This document shows, in pieces, positions 16,700 through 57,666 of a DNA stretch of 64,000 nucleotides. Below the pieces are notes generated by a model. It ran no database searches. It was not told where the DNA came from and was given only the letters and a program-made list of their open reading frames with translations. How positions within the stretch are numbered: the first letter of the stretch is position 1; each line of letters opens with the position of its first letter. A program made the position numbers and the translations under genes. The stretch comes from Phycisphaerae bacterium (GTDB lineage Bacteria > Planctomycetota > Phycisphaerae > UBA1845 > Fen-1342), in assembly GCA_963675745.2 (NCBI GenBank), contig CAXXWX010000021.1, positions 1 through 64,000 of the forward strand, in the 5' to 3' direction.

Positions 16700-18754
16700 A
16701 TGAATCCACGGCTCATCGGCTTTTTTGTCGCTTTGGCCGCAACGACCGGCGCGCTCGCTCAGCAGTCGCCGACCGACATTGACGTCACCCGCGTGGCGAT
16801 TTTCTCCAGCGGTGTGGCGTTCTTCGAGTGCGATGGCAGCGTCGTGGATAATGCCTCCGTCGAGCTCAAGTTCCGCACCGACCAGATCAACGACATCCTC
16901 AAGTCGCTGGTCGTGCAGGATTATGACGGCGGCAGCATCAGCGTCGTCAGCTACGCCTCGCGCGATCCGGTCGAGAAGACGCTCAAGAGCTTCGCGGTCG
17001 ACATCACCGGCAAGCCCACTTTCGGCCAACTGCTTGACCAACTGCGCGGCGAACCCGTCAGCATCGCCGGCCCGCGCAAGATGACCGGCGTGATCGTCGG
17101 CGTCGAGTCGACAACCCGCGTGGTCGACGACCAGGTAATCGAAACCCAGTATGTCAATGTGCTGACGGACGACGGCATGCAGGCCTTGCCGATCCACGAG
17201 CTCACCGGCGTGGAGCTGACGAACCCGAAGATCGCCCACGAGCTTCAGGCCGCCCTGGCCACTCTCGCCGCCGGCCGTGACGCCGACAAGAAGACCGTGG
17301 TCATCAACTTCGACGGTCAGGGTCGCCGACGCGTGCGGGCGATGTATCTGCTCGAAGCCCCGATCTGGAAAACGAGCTATCGGCTGGTGCTCTCAGATGA
17401 GGAAGAGCCATATTTGCAGGGCTGGGCCACGGTTGAAAACGCGACCGAAGAAGATTGGGACAACGTGCAGTTGTCGCTCGTCTCGGGTCGGCCGATTTCA
17501 TTCCGGATGGACCTCTACACGCCGCTGTACGTGCCGCGTCCGGTCGAAGAGTTGGAGCTCTACGCCTCGTTGCGGCCGCCGACGTTCGCCGGCGCGTTTG
17601 AGATGGAGGCCGACGCCAATGGGGACGGACTGCGGGACAAGTCGGTGCCCGCCGCGGCGCGGCGTATGCCGTCGCGTGGGCGAATGGCGGCTAAATCTCC
17701 CATGGTGCTGCTGGAAACTCCCTCAGCGGGAGATGCCATGTTGGGCGAGGGGTTCATCCCCGCCGCCGGCGGCGTCGCGTCGGTTGCGGCGGCTGAGGAA
17801 GCCGGCGAGCTGTTCCAGTACGTGCTCACCGAGCCGGTCACGATCGCGCGCCAGCATTCCGCCATGCTGCCGATCGTCACGCAGGACGTAACCGCCGAGA
17901 AGGTCAGCATCTTTAACGCCAACACGCACCCCAAGCACCCCATGAACGGTCTGATGCTGGATAACTCCACCGGTCTGAGCCTGATGCAGGGGCCCATCAC
18001 GGTTTTCGACGGCGGCATCTACGCCGGTGACGCCAAGCTGCCCGATCTCCAGCCCGGCGAGAAACGTCTGCTGGCCTACGCCCTCGATCTGCCGGTCGAA
18101 GTCGCCACCAAGCAGGATTATGTCGAGAACGAAGTTCGCCTGCGCATCGTCAAGGGCACGCTCTATCGCCAGCTCAAGTCCGTCGATCGTCGTGAATACA
18201 CGATCAAGAACAAGGACACCGATGATCGCACCGTCCTGATCGAACAGCCGCAGCCGGCCGGCTGGACTCTGCTCGAGCCGGCGGAGCCGTTCGAAAAGAC
18301 CGCCGACACGCTGAGATTCAAAGTCGCCGTGACGGCGGGTAAGTCGGCGACGCAAAACGTCAGCCTTGAACGCGTTCGCGAAGAATCGGTGTCCCTGGGC
18401 AACGTGGGCCTTGACCACATTCGCATTTATCTGCGCAGCCGCGTGATTTCACCGGCACTCAAGGAGCAGATGCAGCGCATCATCGCGATGCGCACCGAGC
18501 TGGACCGTATCGGTGCCGAGCGCAACGAAGCCGAGCGCAAGGCACAGACGGCGGTCGAAGACCAGGAGCGCATTCGTCGCAATCTCGAAACCCTGCGCGG
18601 CAACACCGACCAGCACACACGCCAACTGCGCAAGTTCGACGAATTCGAAGACCAGATCGAGCAATGGCGCGCCCGCGTTGACGAGCTGGCCAGGCAGGAG
18701 CAGGAGAAGCGTCAGGCCCTCGAGGACTATCTCCTGGGGCTGAATGTGGAATGA
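16700..18754 (+). CDS. Secreted DUF4139-type protein with C-terminal coiled coil
   Basis: Signal peptide, VTRVAIFSSGVAFF, INDILKSL, WKTSYRL, LQGWATVEN...DWDNVQLSLVSGRP. Confidence 0.75.
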   Translation: MNPRLIGFFVALAATTGALAQQSPTDIDVTRVAIFSSGVAFFECDGSVVDNASVELKFRTDQINDILKSLVVQDYDGGSISVVSYASRDPVEKTLKSFAVDITGKPTFGQLLDQLRGEPVSIAGPRKMTGVIVGVESTTRVVDDQVIETQYVNVLTDDGMQALPIHELTGVELTNPKIAHELQAALATLAAGRDADKKTVVINFDGQGRRRVRAMYLLEAPIWKTSYRLVLSDEEEPYLQGWATVENATEEDWDNVQLSLVSGRPISFRMDLYTPLYVPRPVEELELYASLRPPTFAGAFEMEADANGDGLRDKSVPAAARRMPSRGRMAAKSPMVLLETPSAGDAMLGEGFIPAAGGVASVAAAEEAGELFQYVLTEPVTIARQHSAMLPIVTQDVTAEKVSIFNANTHPKHPMNGLMLDNSTGLSLMQGPITVFDGGIYAGDAKLPDLQPGEKRLLAYALDLPVEVATKQDYVENEVRLRIVKGTLYRQLKSVDRREYTIKNKDTDDRTVLIEQPQPAGWTLLEPAEPFEKTADTLRFKVAVTAGKSATQNVSLERVREESVSLGNVGLDHIRIYLRSRVISPALKEQMQRIIAMRTELDRIGAERNEAERKAQTAVEDQERIRRNLETLRGNTDQHTRQLRKFDEFEDQIEQWRARVDELARQEQEKRQALEDYLLGLNVE

Positions 18755-18759
18755 TGCGG

Positions 18760-18869
18760 GAATGCAGAATGCGGAATGAGGAATGGAGAATGAAGAAACG
18801 CGCCGGCGACAACTAGACGCCGGATCGCCGGTTTCTGCATTCCTCATTCTTCATTCTGCATTCTCATTC
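18760..18869. repeat. Inverted pair of GAATGNN heptamer arrays forming a hairpin between convergent genes
   Basis: Five GAATGNN units (18760-18794) plus GAAAC face GTTTC plus about five NNCATTC units (18836-18869). Confidence 0.85.
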
Positions 18870-28067: not shown

Positions 28068-28340
28068 GCCATGTGGGTGCCCCACGCCTTGGGGTGGGGG
28101 ACTGACTTGCGCAACGTGCGAGATCAAGCGCCTTCCCGCGTGAGATCAGTCCCCCACGGCAAGCCGCGGGGCACCCACATGCGCGCCGCGAGATCAGTCC
28201 CCCGCGGCGAGCCACGGGGCACCCACATGCGCGCCGTAAGATCAGTCCCCCGCGGCGAGCCACGGGGCACCCGCACGCGCGCCGTAAGATCCGTCCCCCA
28301 CGGCAAGCCGTGGGGCACCCTCATGGCAAGCCGCGGGCAC
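28068..28340. repeat. Array of 48-bp palindromic (REP-like) units: four direct copies plus one inverted copy
   Basis: AGATC[A/C]GTCCCCCRCGGCRAGCC...GGGGCACCC starts at 28143, 28191, 28239 and 28287; inverted copy at about 28068-28107. Confidence 0.9.
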
Positions 28341-28363: not shown

Positions 28364-31300
28364 TCAGCAGAAATCGCGCGATGAGTGCCGCACTTTGCCG
28401 ACAAGCTCTGACAGATCGTGCAGCCGGCTTACCTGAACGTGGATTACCTTGCCTTGGCGTTCCACTACTCCATCAGCGACCACGGCGATCTTGTGCCGGG
28501 TCTTGCGCCCCTCGCGATCCCATACTTGCGGACGGATGATCAGGTTGGCCATCCCGGTCTCGTCCTCCAGCGTCATGAACACCATGCCCTTGGCGGTCAT
28601 CGGCCTCTGGCGCACCGTGACCAGTCCGGCCACTCTGATGCCGCGTCCGTGCCGGGTTGCCTTTAGCTTTGCGTTGGGCGTGACTTTCAATCGCCGCAAT
28701 TCTTCCCTGACCAGTTCAATCGGATGAGCGTTGAGCGACATTCCGAGCGCGTCGTAGTCATGTTCGACGGTTTCGGCCAGCGTCATCGCCGGCAGCTTGG
28801 CGGATTGTTCCGCGGGCTCCAGGTCCGCGAACAAACTCTGCTGCTGACGATCCAACGCCAGAATCTGCCATAACACCTGTCGGCGATCGAGCCCCAGCGA
28901 CCGAAAAGCGTCGGCGGCCGCGAGTCGCACAAGCGTCTCACGTGAAACATCATCACGCCGGGCCAATTGGCGGATCGATGTAATCGGGCCTTCGCGCCGG
29001 GCGGCCTCGATGCCGGCGACCTTGTCGGCACTAAGCCCGCGCACAATACGCATACCCAGCCGCACCGCCGGCCCACCCGCGCCCCAACCAGCCGGATCCC
29101 GCGTGTGCGTGTGCCACGGCTCTGTGAGCCGTGCTGTGCTGCCGCGAGAGAAACACGGCTCACAAAGCCGTGGCACCCCCCTCGTGACCTCGTGCCCCCG
29201 CTGCCTTGCTGCCTCGTTGCCTTGTTGCCTCGTTGCCTCGCTGCCTTGCTGCTTTGTGGCCTTGCTGCCTTGTTCCCTCGTGGCCTCGTGGCCTCGTGGC
29301 CTTGTGGCCTCCTTCCCCTCCAACGCACAATCATACCCACTCCAATTCACATCCACCGGCCGCACCGCGACGCCGTGGGCCAGCGCGTCACGCACGAGTT
29401 GCGCCGGGGTATAAAACCCCAACGGCTGGGCGTTGATCAATGCCGCCAGAAACGCCGCCGGGTGATAGCGCTTGAACCAGCAGGATGCATAGACCAACAG
29501 TGCAAACGAGGCGGAGTGACTCTCAGGAAAGCCGTATTCGGCAAACCCGCTGATCTGTTTAAAGACGGCCTCGGCGAACTCGCGTGAGTATCCGTTGATA
29601 AGCATGCCCTTCATCAATCGGGTTTGAAATGGGCTCAGATCGCCATGGCGTTTCCAGGCCGCCATTGCCCGCCGCAATTGGTCGGCCTCGCCGGGGGTGA
29701 AGTTGGCGGCGACGACCGCGAGCTTCATCACCTGTTCCTGAAACAGCGGCACGCCGAGCGTCTTTTCCAGCACCGCCTTGATACGTTCATCCGGATACCA
29801 GACCGGCTCCAGCCCGTCACGGCGGCGCAGGTACGGATGAACCATGCCACCCTGGATCGGTCCCGGCCGCACAATCGCCACCTCGATCACCAGGTCATAA
29901 AAACAGCGCGGCTTCAAACGCGGCAACATGCTCATCTGCGCCCGGCTCTCGATCTGAAAGACGCCGACGGTGTCAGCGTCGCAGATCATGTCGTAGACGC
30001 GGGGGTCTTCGGGGGGGATGGAGGAGAGGGAACAGGGAACGGGGAACGGGGAACGGGGAACGGGGAACGGGGAACAGGGAACGGGGAACGGGGAACGGGG
30101 AACGGTGGCGGGGGGGGCTAGGTGGGGGGTGTGCGTAGCTTGTTGATCAGGGCTTGGAGCATGCGCGCGATTTCGTGGATCAGATCCGGCAGTTGGTTGG
30201 CTGTTGGGAGCAGCTTGAGTTCCTGGGCTATGATTAGCTGCGTTTCCAATTCCGCAAGCGAACCCCGCGCTATGGTGAGGAAGTGGATGTAGTCCTTTCG
30301 GCTCTGACGAGCATTGCCTTCCGCAATGTTGCTCGGAATCGAGACGGCGGCACGCCTGATCTGGCTCGTGAGTCCGAACCGTTCGCCCTCGGGCATCTGG
30401 CTTGTCAGTTTGTAGACGGTCTTGGCCAACGTGATTCCCTTCTTCCAAACGATCAGATCGCGAAAGTCCACTATGTTTGCCATACTTGCACCTTTCAAGT
30501 TCAGATACCAGCGAATCACCAATCCCCCCGCGCGCAACAACCCGTTCCCCGTTCCCCGTTCCCCGTTCCCTGTTCCCTGTTCCCCGTTCCCCGTTCCCTG
30601 TTCCCTCCATCATCCGAAACATCCCACTAATCGCCGTCAGCATCCCCAGGGCCAGGCAGTCCACTTTCAAGATCCCCAATGCATCGATATCGTCCTTATC
30701 CCACTCGATAAATGTGCGGCCGGGCATGGCGCCGTTCAGCAGGGGGACGATCTCACACAGCGGCGTCTCGGTGATTACAAAGCCGCCGACGTGCTGGGAG
30801 AGATGACGTGGAAAACCCGCCACCTGGCGCACCAGCCGCAGGACCATCTGCACAGTGCGATTGTCAGGATTGAGGCCGGCGGCGCGGATCGCATCGGTGG
30901 GCAGCTCGTTATCCCACCACTCGGTCATCTTTGACATGCGCTCGACGCGATCGAGCGACAGGCCGAGGGCCTTACCGATGTCACGGACGGCCGAGCGCGC
31001 GTGATAGGTGATCACCTCCGCCGTAATCGCCGCCCGTTCGCGGCCGTACTTCCGGTAGATGTATTGGAAAACCTCCTCGCGGCGGTTGTGCTCGAAATCA
31101 ACGTCGATGTCCGGCGGCTCATTGCGTTCCTTGCTGACGAAGCGCTCGAAGAGCAGATCGATGCGCGCCGGATCAACCGCGGTGACGCCCAGGCAGTAAC
31201 ACACCGCGGAGTTCGCCGCCGACCCGCGCCCCTGGCACAAGATGCCGCGGCCGCGGGCAAAACGCACCAGATCCCAGACGGTCAGGAAGTAATACTCGTA

Positions 31301-32323
31301 GCGCAGCTCCTCGATGAGCTTAAGCTCGGCGGTGAGCAGATCGCGCACCTTGTCCGGGATGCCGTCGGCATAACGCCGCGCCGCGCCCGCCCAGGTCAGT
31401 TGTGCGAGGTATTCGATCGGTGACAGGTCATCCGGGCACACCTCGTGGGCGTATTCGTACTTGAGCTCATCAAGACTGAAGGTGCAGCGCTCGGCAATCT
31501 CGATCGTGCGCTCCAACAGATCGGTATGCGCCGCGTAACGCCGCCCGGTTTCATCCAGTGTCCGCAAGTGTCGCTGAGCGTTTGGGAACAACCGGCGGCC
31601 GGCGTCATGGATCGTGCATTTCTCACGCACACAGGTGAGCGCGTCCTGCAAGTAACGCCGGGCCGCATCGTGATAGTGAACATCATTGGCGGCGACCAGC
31701 GGGATGTTGACCTGGTTGGACAACGCGTGTAGCCACGCAAGGCGCTCCGTGTCGGGCTGCTCATACGCGAGTTCGGCGGCCAGATACACATCGTGCCCAA
31801 AGAGCTCGCGGTAAGCGTGGTAATGTCGAATGTCCGCGGCTGACGCGACCGGCCGGCGCGGCGGCGTGACGATCGCGATCAAGCCGCTGGCCAGCGCGGC
31901 CACATCATCAAACGTCAGGTGACATTGCCCCTTCTTGACACGCAAACGCCCCCGCGTGATCAGACGCGACAGCCGTCCATACGCAGCGCGATCCGGCGCC
32001 AACAGCACAACGGGCGGCGCATCAACCGGCGTGATCTCGGCCCCAACGATCAGATGCAGATTGTGATGCTGCGCCGCAATGTGTGCCCGTACCACGCCGG
32101 CCAGAGAGTTTCTGTCCGTGATCGCCAACGCGGCGTAGCCCAACTCGGCGGCGCGCTCGACCAGCTCTTCCGGGTGCGACGCGCCGCGCAGAAATGAGAA
32201 GTTCGTCAAACAGTGCAACTCGGCGTACGCGGTCGATACCGGTGAGCGGCGGTGGGATGTTGTCTCGGTGGTGACGCTATGGCAGGGATGAGAATGCCGC
32301 TTCTGATTCGCCGGGGCTGGCAT
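28364..32323 (-). CDS. dnaE2: Error-prone DNA polymerase DnaE2 with two in-frame insertions
   Basis: YAELHCLTNFSFLRGASHPEEL, CQGRGSAANS, PPDIDVD, PRHLSQHVGG, WDKDD..LKVDCLALGML, YGFPESH, RQRPMTAKGMVFMTLEDETG, C-terminal SRDF. Confidence 0.95.
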   Translation of the reverse strand: MPAPANQKRHSHPCHSVTTETTSHRRSPVSTAYAELHCLTNFSFLRGASHPEELVERAAELGYAALAITDRNSLAGVVRAHIAAQHHNLHLIVGAEITPVDAPPVVLLAPDRAAYGRLSRLITRGRLRVKKGQCHLTFDDVAALASGLIAIVTPPRRPVASAADIRHYHAYRELFGHDVYLAAELAYEQPDTERLAWLHALSNQVNIPLVAANDVHYHDAARRYLQDALTCVREKCTIHDAGRRLFPNAQRHLRTLDETGRRYAAHTDLLERTIEIAERCTFSLDELKYEYAHEVCPDDLSPIEYLAQLTWAGAARRYADGIPDKVRDLLTAELKLIEELRYEYYFLTVWDLVRFARGRGILCQGRGSAANSAVCYCLGVTAVDPARIDLLFERFVSKERNEPPDIDVDFEHNRREEVFQYIYRKYGRERAAITAEVITYHARSAVRDIGKALGLSLDRVERMSKMTEWWDNELPTDAIRAAGLNPDNRTVQMVLRLVRQVAGFPRHLSQHVGGFVITETPLCEIVPLLNGAMPGRTFIEWDKDDIDALGILKVDCLALGMLTAISGMFRMMEGTGNGERGTGNRERGTGNGERVVARGGIGDSLVSELERCKYGKHSGLSRSDRLEEGNHVGQDRLQTDKPDARGRTVRTHEPDQACRRLDSEQHCGRQCSSEPKGLHPLPHHSAGFACGIGNAANHSPGTQAAPNSQPTAGSDPRNRAHAPSPDQQATHTPHLAPPATVPRSPFPVPCSPFPVPRSPFPVPCSLSSIPPEDPRVYDMICDADTVGVFQIESRAQMSMLPRLKPRCFYDLVIEVAIVRPGPIQGGMVHPYLRRRDGLEPVWYPDERIKAVLEKTLGVPLFQEQVMKLAVVAANFTPGEADQLRRAMAAWKRHGDLSPFQTRLMKGMLINGYSREFAEAVFKQISGFAEYGFPESHSASFALLVYASCWFKRYHPAAFLAALINAQPLGFYTPAQLVRDALAHGVAVRPVDVNWSGYDCALEGKEATRPRGHEATREQGSKATKQQGSEATRQQGNEAARQRGHEVTRGVPRLCEPCFSRGSTARLTEPWHTHTRDPAGWGAGGPAVRLGMRIVRGLSADKVAGIEAARREGPITSIRQLARRDDVSRETLVRLAAADAFRSLGLDRRQVLWQILALDRQQQSLFADLEPAEQSAKLPAMTLAETVEHDYDALGMSLNAHPIELVREELRRLKVTPNAKLKATRHGRGIRVAGLVTVRQRPMTAKGMVFMTLEDETGMANLIIRPQVWDREGRKTRHKIAVVADGVVERQGKVIHVQVSRLHDLSELVGKVRHSSRDFC
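29111..29307. repeat. Octamer tandem array (16 units, consensus CCTYGYKG, 29180-29307) plus a 23-bp inverted repeat (29111-29133/29154-29176) inside dnaE2
   Basis: Read directly from the sequence; translates to the low-complexity EATRPRGHEATREQGSK... stretch in DnaE2. Confidence 0.9.
30028..30104. repeat. 11 x GGGAACR heptamer array (3-prime arm in the dnaE2 mRNA)
   Basis: 77 bp of uninterrupted GGGAAC[A/G] units. Confidence 0.97.
30118..30483 (-). CDS. Four-helix-bundle protein (23S rRNA intervening-sequence protein / bAvd-like), nested in dnaE2 in the +1 frame
   Basis: FRDLIVWKK, ERFGLTSQIRRAAVSIPSNIAEG, FLTIARGSLAELETQL. 121 aa, with its own GAAAGGT RBS-like site before ATG 30483. Confidence 0.92.
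   Translation of the reverse strand: MANIVDFRDLIVWKKGITLAKTVYKLTSQMPEGERFGLTSQIRRAAVSIPSNIAEGNARQSRKDYIHFLTIARGSLAELETQLIIAQELKLLPTANQLPDLIHEIARMLQALINKLRTPPT
30543..30605. repeat. 9 x YGTTCCC heptamer array (reverse complement of the 30028-30104 unit)
   Basis: 63 bp of uninterrupted [C/T]GTTCCC units. Confidence 0.97.
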
Positions 32324-32373: not shown

Positions 32374-32392
32374 ATACCTAACAAATACCTAA
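32374..32392. promoter_or_regulatory. Candidate operator: ATACCTAA direct repeat with 11-bp period upstream of dnaE2
   Basis: ATACCTAA-CAA-ATACCTAA in an AT-rich patch about 50 bp upstream of the dnaE2 ATG. Confidence 0.35.
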
Positions 32393-57385: not shown

Positions 57386-57655
57386 CTGACCCGCGCGTCC
57401 GGCGAACGATCCGGTGTACCCACTCGAATCTCAGATCCCGAATCTCAGATCTCAGATCCCGAGTCTCGAATCTCAAATCTCGAATCTCAAGTCTGAGCAC
57501 AAGAGACTGACCCGCGCGTCCGACGAACGCACGGGTCAGCTCTGGTGGAGAATCCGATTGCGCGACTTCACGGCGTCACTCGCCGCGCCGCGCTGGACAC
57601 GGCGTCACTCGCCGCGCCGCGCTGGACACGGCGTCACTCACCGCGCCGCGCTGGA
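57386..57655. repeat. Composite repeat patch: 10 heptamers (consensus TCRRATC, 57424-57493) between two CTGACCCGCGCGTCCGRCGAACG repeats, then a 3 x 29-bp tandem repeat (57569-57655)
   Basis: Read directly from the sequence. Confidence 0.88.
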
Positions 57656-57666
57656 TAGGGCGGGAA

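Follow-up and report, generated by a model that had tools for sequence, protein, structure and literature searches.

The closest described system to the locus reported here is the ShiLan domain of actinobacteriophage DNA methylases, an insertion of a hidden HNH open reading frame (ORF) (Arsenault, Gosselin, Gogarten 2025, PMC11855218). According to the available portion of that paper, the host frame runs without a stop over an ORF that is intact in a different frame, intron and intein features are not detectable, the insert is predicted to persist in the product as a loop, and the distribution is patchy; our locus is alike in all of these respects. In the same portion, the ShiLan cargo is described as an HNH homing endonuclease for which no ribosome-binding site was detectable, and the term "four helix" is absent from the main text. 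The second point of comparison is the intervening sequence (IVS) with S23p in the 23S rRNA of Coxiella burnetii, which, as far as the available text of PMC4990558 describes it, resembles our locus in protein family, in terminal inverted repeats forming a stem, in heptamers and in size. In addition, Rickettsia RPE and bacterial MITEs are stem-loop repeats that are translated in frame, and one RPE-bearing enzyme has been shown to be active (PMC2229807, available text). Out-of-frame remodelling of genes has also been described in general (PMC8788219, in the part available).

In the present study, we analysed a 64,000-nt stretch of DNA from a Phycisphaerae bacterium (the window), which contains a dnaE2 gene with an insert. 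The host gene and its catalytic motifs are located as follows:

28364..32323, minus strand: dnaE2, error-prone DNA polymerase III alpha (host gene), a single ORF of 1319 aa, open throughout
31097..31117, minus strand: catalytic motif PPDIDVD, aa 403-409, intact
30659..30670, minus strand: catalytic motif LKVD (palm), aa 552-555, intact, about 20 codons ahead of the cassette

The protein was identified as DnaE2 by its score against the NF004225 profile (1388 bits; cut-off 939), its catalytic Asp motifs and its tail, SRDFC, with the SRDF motif at aa 1315. Among 66 DnaE2 sequences, the PPDIDVD columns (P101-D107) were invariant or nearly so, and the first-pass annotation, which had described both catalytic motifs as intact, was correct on this point. 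The dN/dS of dnaE2, a quantity that it had named as informative, was 0.13 in the flanks of 27 loaded alleles (those carrying the nested gene described below). This value indicated purifying selection on DnaE2 and spoke against a decaying host gene. Partner genes were also found: on contig C10 of the same genome, a weak IMS match coincided with a 510-aa frame preceded by a RecA-like ORF, and from their translations we take this pair to be ImuA and ImuB. The genes dnaE2, imuA and imuB occur as a contiguous or split cassette (PMC3919608). A direct repeat, TTAGGTAT-N3-TTAGGTAT, was observed at window positions 32374-32392 (minus strand), about 50 nt upstream of dnaE2, and near-matches lay upstream of the distant imuA-imuB-like pair (G000:C10 near 139853-139876); only 4 matches occurred genome-wide at up to 3 mismatches. 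This repeat is a candidate shared SOS-type operator of the split mutasome cassette. A promoter scan returned 3 sites against 1.6 expected, none of them useful. We also observed a second in-frame dnaE2 insert at 29080-29320 (minus strand), which comprised an 8-mer array (29180-29311) and a short palindrome and spanned 100 aa, compared with 24-74 aa in the 8 relatives in which it was observed. Just 3' of the dnaE2 stop, at 28139-28325, lay four palindromic units of 48 nt in tandem.

The main insert is a cassette in the palm-to-fingers linker, between the palm motif LKVD and the fingers. Its parts are as follows:

30026..30607, minus strand: whole cassette (arm, spacer, nested gene, spacer, arm), 582 nt or 194 codons for dnaE2
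30541..30607, minus strand: 5' arm, about 9 tandem GGGAAC(A/G) heptamers
30026..30105, minus strand: 3' arm, about 11 tandem inverted heptamers
30118..30483, minus strand: nested four-helix-bundle gene (PF05635 / TIGR02436), 121 aa plus stop, 122 codons
30489..30495, minus strand: Shine-Dalgarno-like AAAGGTG ahead of the nested ATG, -6.3 kcal/mol

Between fixed anchors, the window allele measured 690 nt and the shortest empty alleles 138 nt, an excess of 552 nt or 184 codons. The 67-nt arms were 96% complementary and formed terminal inverted repeats, with a stem around an S23p-family ORF. The heptamer arrays of the window were long and 94-95% pure. When contigs from 3 of 17 listed sequencing runs were compared with the window, those of the best run were identical letter for letter in the unique parts and broke at both arms, and no contig of the three runs bridged an arm; the heptamer counts are approximate. 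The outer end of the 3' arm lay inside a conserved host Leu codon, at an identical nucleotide offset in 25 of 37 alleles, and the 5' boundary was variable among alleles. At least six classes of arm were distinguished across alleles, with units of 7 or 8 nt and never triplets; most were 8-mers of varied type and length, and most arms were short and degenerate.

The nested gene lies on the same strand as dnaE2 in the +1 frame relative to it; that is, dnaE2 reads the -1 frame of the nested gene. Its product matched PF05635 (E 2e-39; 134 bits against a cut-off of 33.8), TIGR02436 (133.5 bits against 24) and the structure 2GSC in the PDB (E 3e-25). Within the cassette, no nuclease or transposase was encoded, the only matches being PF05635 and a weak one to bAvd. 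An SD-like site of -4 kcal/mol or better stood at the nested start in 35 of 37 alleles against 38% of control windows, a count that is biased upward because the best start was picked per allele. The dN/dS of the nested protein was 0.23, which indicated purifying selection. A stop interrupted the nested gene of 2 of the 38 alleles, both with a host frame that was still open. Slippage into the nested frame, which would give a DnaE2-four-helix fusion, was not conserved, as upstream nested-frame stops were present in 20 of 33 rows, including 3 duplicates.

In the predicted RNA fold, the arms closed into a long stem, and it was the arms that gave the whole 681 nt a z of -10.4. The arms were able to pair in every loaded allele (median 53 bp, minimum 35). 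The first-pass annotation had proposed that this stem extends into host codons, at the following positions:

30608..30611, minus strand: host codons GAUG, predicted to pair with CAUC (30017-30020) across a 5-nt bulge, not beyond chance
30017..30025, minus strand: host-side bulge and CAUC, predicted stem extension, not beyond chance

The proposed pairing of GAUG-GAGGGAACA with UGUUCCCUC-(UCCUC)-CAUC was indeed present in both the minimum-free-energy and the centroid folds, but it was no better than in synonymous shuffles of the window (z -1.08). Within the family, the mean z of host-flank pairing was -0.49 in 31 loaded alleles and -0.40 in 6 empty ones, showing no enrichment.

The dnaE2 frame contained no stop from KVDCL to DTVGVFQ, and the other two minus-strand frames contained several between 29900 and 30703. 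The reading that dnaE2 stays open through the insert was thus confirmed, the ORF being unbroken over all 194 cassette codons, including the 122 shared with the nested gene. For the window gene alone, an estimate from its own codons gave a P of about 0.07 for a stop-free frame, and the openness of this single nested gene could be due to chance. As a control, we used 112 loci from a class-wide family search with 150 of 524 matches listed; 29 were delivered as loci, 80 were fetched by coordinates and 3 came from the window's own genome, with some contig-end or duplicate rows skipped. These loci held 115 family genes. The -1 frame was open in 13, of which 6 were nested in long host ORFs, and the +1 frame in 2, neither within a long ORF. 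Free homologues, whose general openness would have undercut the proposed dual coding, were open in the -1 frame in 7 of 109 cases overall, and GC-rich ones in 5/55 (GC3 >= 0.62) or 4/32 (GC3 >= 0.70).

The nested alleles gave a different picture. All 38 complete loaded alleles among the matches listed (one per genome, with kin not independent) had the cassette at the same site, the host frame stop-free and the nested gene in +1, although assemblies are interrupted at the arms of several loaded alleles (G227, G097, G266, G151), where frameshifted alleles could be hidden. Their anchor distances ranged from 576 to 918 nt, every one divisible by 3, and the expectation that insert length stays in frame across relatives was therefore upheld. 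Three further loaded alleles, cut by contig ends, were open as far as the sequence reaches. The count of 38 includes L254, which is absent from the 37-allele analyses; L027 was left out, L094-L096 were dropped as repeats of counted alleles, and L029 and L112 are short alleles that are not loaded. In 37 nested genes, a wobble T that would make a stop (TAA, TAG or TGA with the next codon) occurred at 0 of 365 positions. The expected number was 79 from matched next-base controls, about 55 when scaled by the deficit of free genes, and 67 at the rate of free high-GC genes; the free genes themselves showed 126 such T against 178 expected. In dnaE2's own flanks, stop-making T occurred at normal frequency. 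The spacers and arms contained no stop in the host frame, against 68 and 78 in the other two frames. The synonymous sites of the nested genes were near saturation (median pS 0.66 over 351 pairs; dS 1.5 against 1.05 in the dnaE2 flanks), which indicated that the absence of stop-making T was actively maintained rather than inherited. These comparisons strongly support the view that selection keeps the dnaE2 frame open across the cassette.

It could instead be supposed that chance and a one-time filter suffice: a GC-rich gene would have been open on landing, and its state would have been inherited, perhaps in a decaying dnaE2. The open fractions among GC-rich free homologues are compatible with such a landing, and all dnaE2-nested genes formed one clade (SH-aLRT 99 and 95, quick trees). 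Yet the nested genes had a median identity of only 57% among alleles, 47 of 115 columns were at risk of a stop, and none appeared despite the near-saturated synonymous sites; the low flank dN/dS likewise disagrees with a decaying host. As judged from these alignments, this explanation would cover the origin of the insertion and not its maintenance; it is largely refuted, and as a full account we regard it as scarcely credible.

Excision at the RNA level was also considered. If the cassette were cut from the mRNA and the halves rejoined, as by an unknown intron type, the open frame would be a mere back-up. The long closing stem would bring the host halves together, the 3' boundary is fixed in most alleles, and the IVS is excised from rRNA (PMC4990558, available text). 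However, splicing would need neither the triplet length found in 38/38 alleles nor the stop-codon avoidance (0/365). The 5' boundary varies, and, according to the same text, IVS excision yields fragments and the RNA is not rejoined. A group I or II intron was not found either, since an Rfam search over 29800-30900 gave a single chance match (osmY, 17 bits against 47). Taken together, splicing is very unlikely.

The first-pass annotation had further suggested a slippage-based switch, in which dnaE2 would be turned on or off as a 7-mer is gained or lost by strand slippage. The repeat units, being 7 or 8 nt, would shift the frame on any single gain or loss, the window arrays are long and pure, and heptamer copy number varies among Coxiella strains (PMC4990558, available text). 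Nevertheless, none of the 38 assemblies was out of frame (rule-of-three bound about 8%, with kin not independent), and each arm on its own preserved the +1 relation of the nested gene. Most arms are short and degenerate. Such repeats also occur in frame in other genes, for example a kinase, which points to a genome-wide family and not to a dedicated tract. A phase-variable repeat would come with an ON and OFF allele pair, and no such pair was seen among the 38. The switch was not supported by these data and is highly improbable; slippage may occur as a rare mutation that is purged.

We then compared the constraints on the two products of the shared stretch. An alignment of 29 host-frame peptides contained no invariant column. 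Because the dS of the nested gene was not below that of the flanks, the host-frame peptide imposes only the absence of stops. In the AlphaFold model, residues 285-452, corresponding to DnaE2 aa 587-754, had a pLDDT below 50, and the remainder folded like Pol III alpha; the loop of about 190 aa is accordingly predicted to be disordered. The loop site already measured 46 to 118 aa in unloaded alleles. A word-index search with the host-frame peptide (226 candidates) returned only the window's own protein, and an HMMER library search gave 6 matches, of which 2 were nested cases, 2 were short shifted-frame gene calls and 2 were apparently due to chance. No Hint or intein family was detected in the 1319-aa protein, and the junction residues varied, so the insert is not an intein. 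The substitution patterns indicate that selection is asymmetric, with the nested protein constrained and the host-frame peptide unconstrained. The earlier proposal of selection for dual coding was therefore upheld for the open frame and the nested protein, but not for the host-frame peptide, in which no constraint beyond the absence of stops was detected.

The distribution of the cassette was examined within and beyond the window's family. In this family, the dnaE2 site was found in 58 of 72 genomes; 29 alleles were loaded, and in the other 29 the site held no more than a short hairpin. When 301 genomes of the class were searched, the matches listed included loaded alleles in other families and orders, and the named records with a loaded allele were labelled Planctomycetales or Phycisphaerae. 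Other phyla among 80 dnaE2 loci had a short site. On the dnaE2 tree, loaded, hairpin-only and empty alleles were interleaved. Loaded and unloaded alleles occurred as sisters (L017/L090 and L254/L269), and L090 retained a 3' remnant of the nested gene after an in-frame deletion. At the sequence level, these alleles demonstrated repeated decay to gene-less hairpins. In one assembly (L027, G023:C12), the dnaE2 halves stood in reversed order within one open frame, which is probably a misassembly at the repeats, or else a permutation.

This distribution bears on the idea of a domesticated regulator, in which the stem would let RNase III destroy untranslated dnaE2 mRNA and thereby damp the mutator, with the nested protein possibly binding the arms and tuning the effect. 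Pairable arms in every loaded allele are consistent with it, as are the presence of an RNase III gene in the window genome, the excision of the Coxiella IVS by RNase III (PMC4990558, available text) and the loaded state of half of the family alleles. On the other hand, the other half lack the gene or the whole cassette, the loaded and unloaded sisters fit a dispensable passenger, and an equal layout occurs in unrelated hosts. A regulatory role would be compatible with read-through, and we consider it unlikely.

Arm type followed the nested gene more closely than the host. Arm classes, which were assigned by eye after the first tree had been seen, required 9 changes when mapped on the tree of the nested genes, 19 on that of dnaE2 and about 24 after shuffling. 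In 27 family alleles, the correlation (r) was 0.36 between arm and nested gene, 0.07 between arm and host and 0.10 between nested gene and host; over all 37 alleles, that between nested gene and host was 0.43, and the Mantel p-values overstate significance, as kin are not independent. Hosts that were 94% identical could carry 65%-identical nested proteins, and hosts of 79-86% identity carried 79-80%-identical ones. The host data rejected one arm-defined group (p-AU 4e-5). The nested-gene data did not reject two tested host clades (p-AU 0.13 and 0.47), with a short tree (115-122 columns) that is mostly unresolved. A scan for a co-conversion tract (15 windows with a value, 4 without) revealed no clear one; the best stretch was that of the 25 codons to the left of the site (r 0.30, uncorrected p 0.015). 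Because arm type follows the nested gene and not dnaE2, the cassette has likely been exchanged as a unit between dnaE2 alleles. Convergence of protein and arm is the alternative and could account for the pattern in part; under exchange or convergence alike, the nested protein and the arm are coupled.

The same arrangement was found in other host genes. Read-through nesting in the -1 frame also occurred in BREX PglX, in Eco57I-type and N6_N4 methylases, and in GNAT-domain and FGE-domain proteins; the frame relation was common to at least five unrelated host genes. Among the 115 control family genes, no long host ORF read the nested gene in its +1 frame. The window genome contained four PF05635-family genes, each with different arms, and only the dnaE2-nested one had arms of the GGGAAC type. 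Arrays of the GGGAAC type numbered 46 in this genome, and a mechanical criterion placed 12 of them within long ORFs. The genome also yielded a count of 219 arrays with a period of 7 or 8, belonging to several families. The GGGAAC heptamer was observed in frame at G000:C26:635322-635426 (as a hairpin), C26:447577 and C3:60799, in genes that we take, from their motifs, to be Ser/Thr kinase-like (the hairpin), arginyl-tRNA-synthetase-like and radical-SAM-like. A heptamer-armed four-helix gene (L004, G000:C1:217529-217834) lay between neighbours that are presumably ATP synthase gamma and beta genes, again judged from their motifs. Two further four-helix genes (L058 and L226) had a long opposite-strand open frame on both sides, a possible antisense nesting. 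Heptamer arrays of GAATGAA / TTCTTCA (an inverted pair) and of CTCAAAT, together with a tandem repeat of 29 nt, were located at 18754-18869 and 57423-57662 in the window, and another heptamer array lay at G000:C10:160730-160750, about 300 nt away from the gene for RNase III. Orphan heptamer repeats have been described, with no link to PF05635-family genes in the text available from that source (PMC4679880).

Collectively, we consider it probable that the insert is an rRNA-IVS-type cassette at a fixed, insertion-tolerant loop of dnaE2, present in numerous members of a single class of Planctomycetota and tolerated by translational read-through. At insertion, a GC-rich nested gene would pass a one-time filter, roughly one in ten being open, and lasting selection against host-frame stops would follow. 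The ribosome, trailing RNA polymerase, would translate straight through the cassette in the nested gene's -1 frame, and the product would be a full-length DnaE2 that retains a disordered loop. The nested gene would be translated separately from its own ribosome-binding site. In untranslated mRNA, the arms may pair and be cut by RNase III, as we infer by analogy with the rRNA IVS, releasing a nested mini-mRNA, and the nested protein may recognise its own arm repeat. A more speculative extension, possible yet doubtful, is that the PF05635 protein reads the arm repeat and aids nuclease-free movement into fixed dnaE2 and methylase sites, that read-through renders the insertion harmless, and that arm pairing sets an either/or choice between mutator polymerase and mini-mRNA. 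If true, such cassettes would form a class of site-specific mobile elements of their own, separate from introns, inteins and insertions based on homing endonucleases, and a function would be assigned both to PF05635 and to the orphan families of 7/8-mer repeats.

Finally, we compared the cassette with the known systems. Avd of diversity-generating retroelements and XCC0516 (PDB 2GSC) have a homologous four-helix fold (PMC10053308, available text). The nested protein is not a DGR Avd, its scores against the bAvd and DGR-Avd profiles being below cut-off (30 against 40 and 30 against 80 bits), and no reverse transcriptase match lay on the window's contig, with 4 elsewhere in the genome. RPE and MITEs, as described in the available text of PMC2229807, are gene-less and 100-200 nt long; they match the empty hairpin alleles but not the loaded dual-frame cassette. 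The cassette is not an rRNA IVS proper, as it sits in dnaE2 and not in a 16S or 23S rRNA gene. Its host molecule is an mRNA; a cut not followed by rejoining would destroy this message, and survival of the cassette therefore depends on the open host frame. Moreover, purifying selection acts on the dnaE2-nested ORF, in contrast to the Coxiella ORF, for which decay is described (PMC4990558, available text). With regard to ShiLan, the host frame was likewise free of stops over an out-of-frame ORF in 38/38 alleles, but the cargo is not an HNH endonuclease: it is a PF05635 four-helix gene that is preceded by an SD-like site and whose product has no known nuclease activity. The inverted tandem-repeat arms that flank it are a further difference, as is the host, a polymerase gene of the chromosome that is occupied in genomes from across a bacterial class. 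In searches of the openly accessible literature, we found no description of an out-of-frame PF05635 gene inside a gene for another protein. To our knowledge, evolutionary evidence has rarely been provided for same-strand nesting of genes that is maintained by selection in bacterial chromosomes, and the 38 diverged alleles provide a clean signature of such nesting. The nesting would also explain why annotated DnaE2 proteins of the class are about 200 aa overlength and why gene callers miss the nested gene. The series at one site (loaded, broken, hairpin-only and empty, with arm types paired with protein clades) makes PF05635 function and the origin of 7/8-mer repeats testable. In comparison with the phage HNH insertion, the dnaE2 cassette would thus extend the read-through strategy to a non-nuclease cargo and to a chromosomal polymerase.
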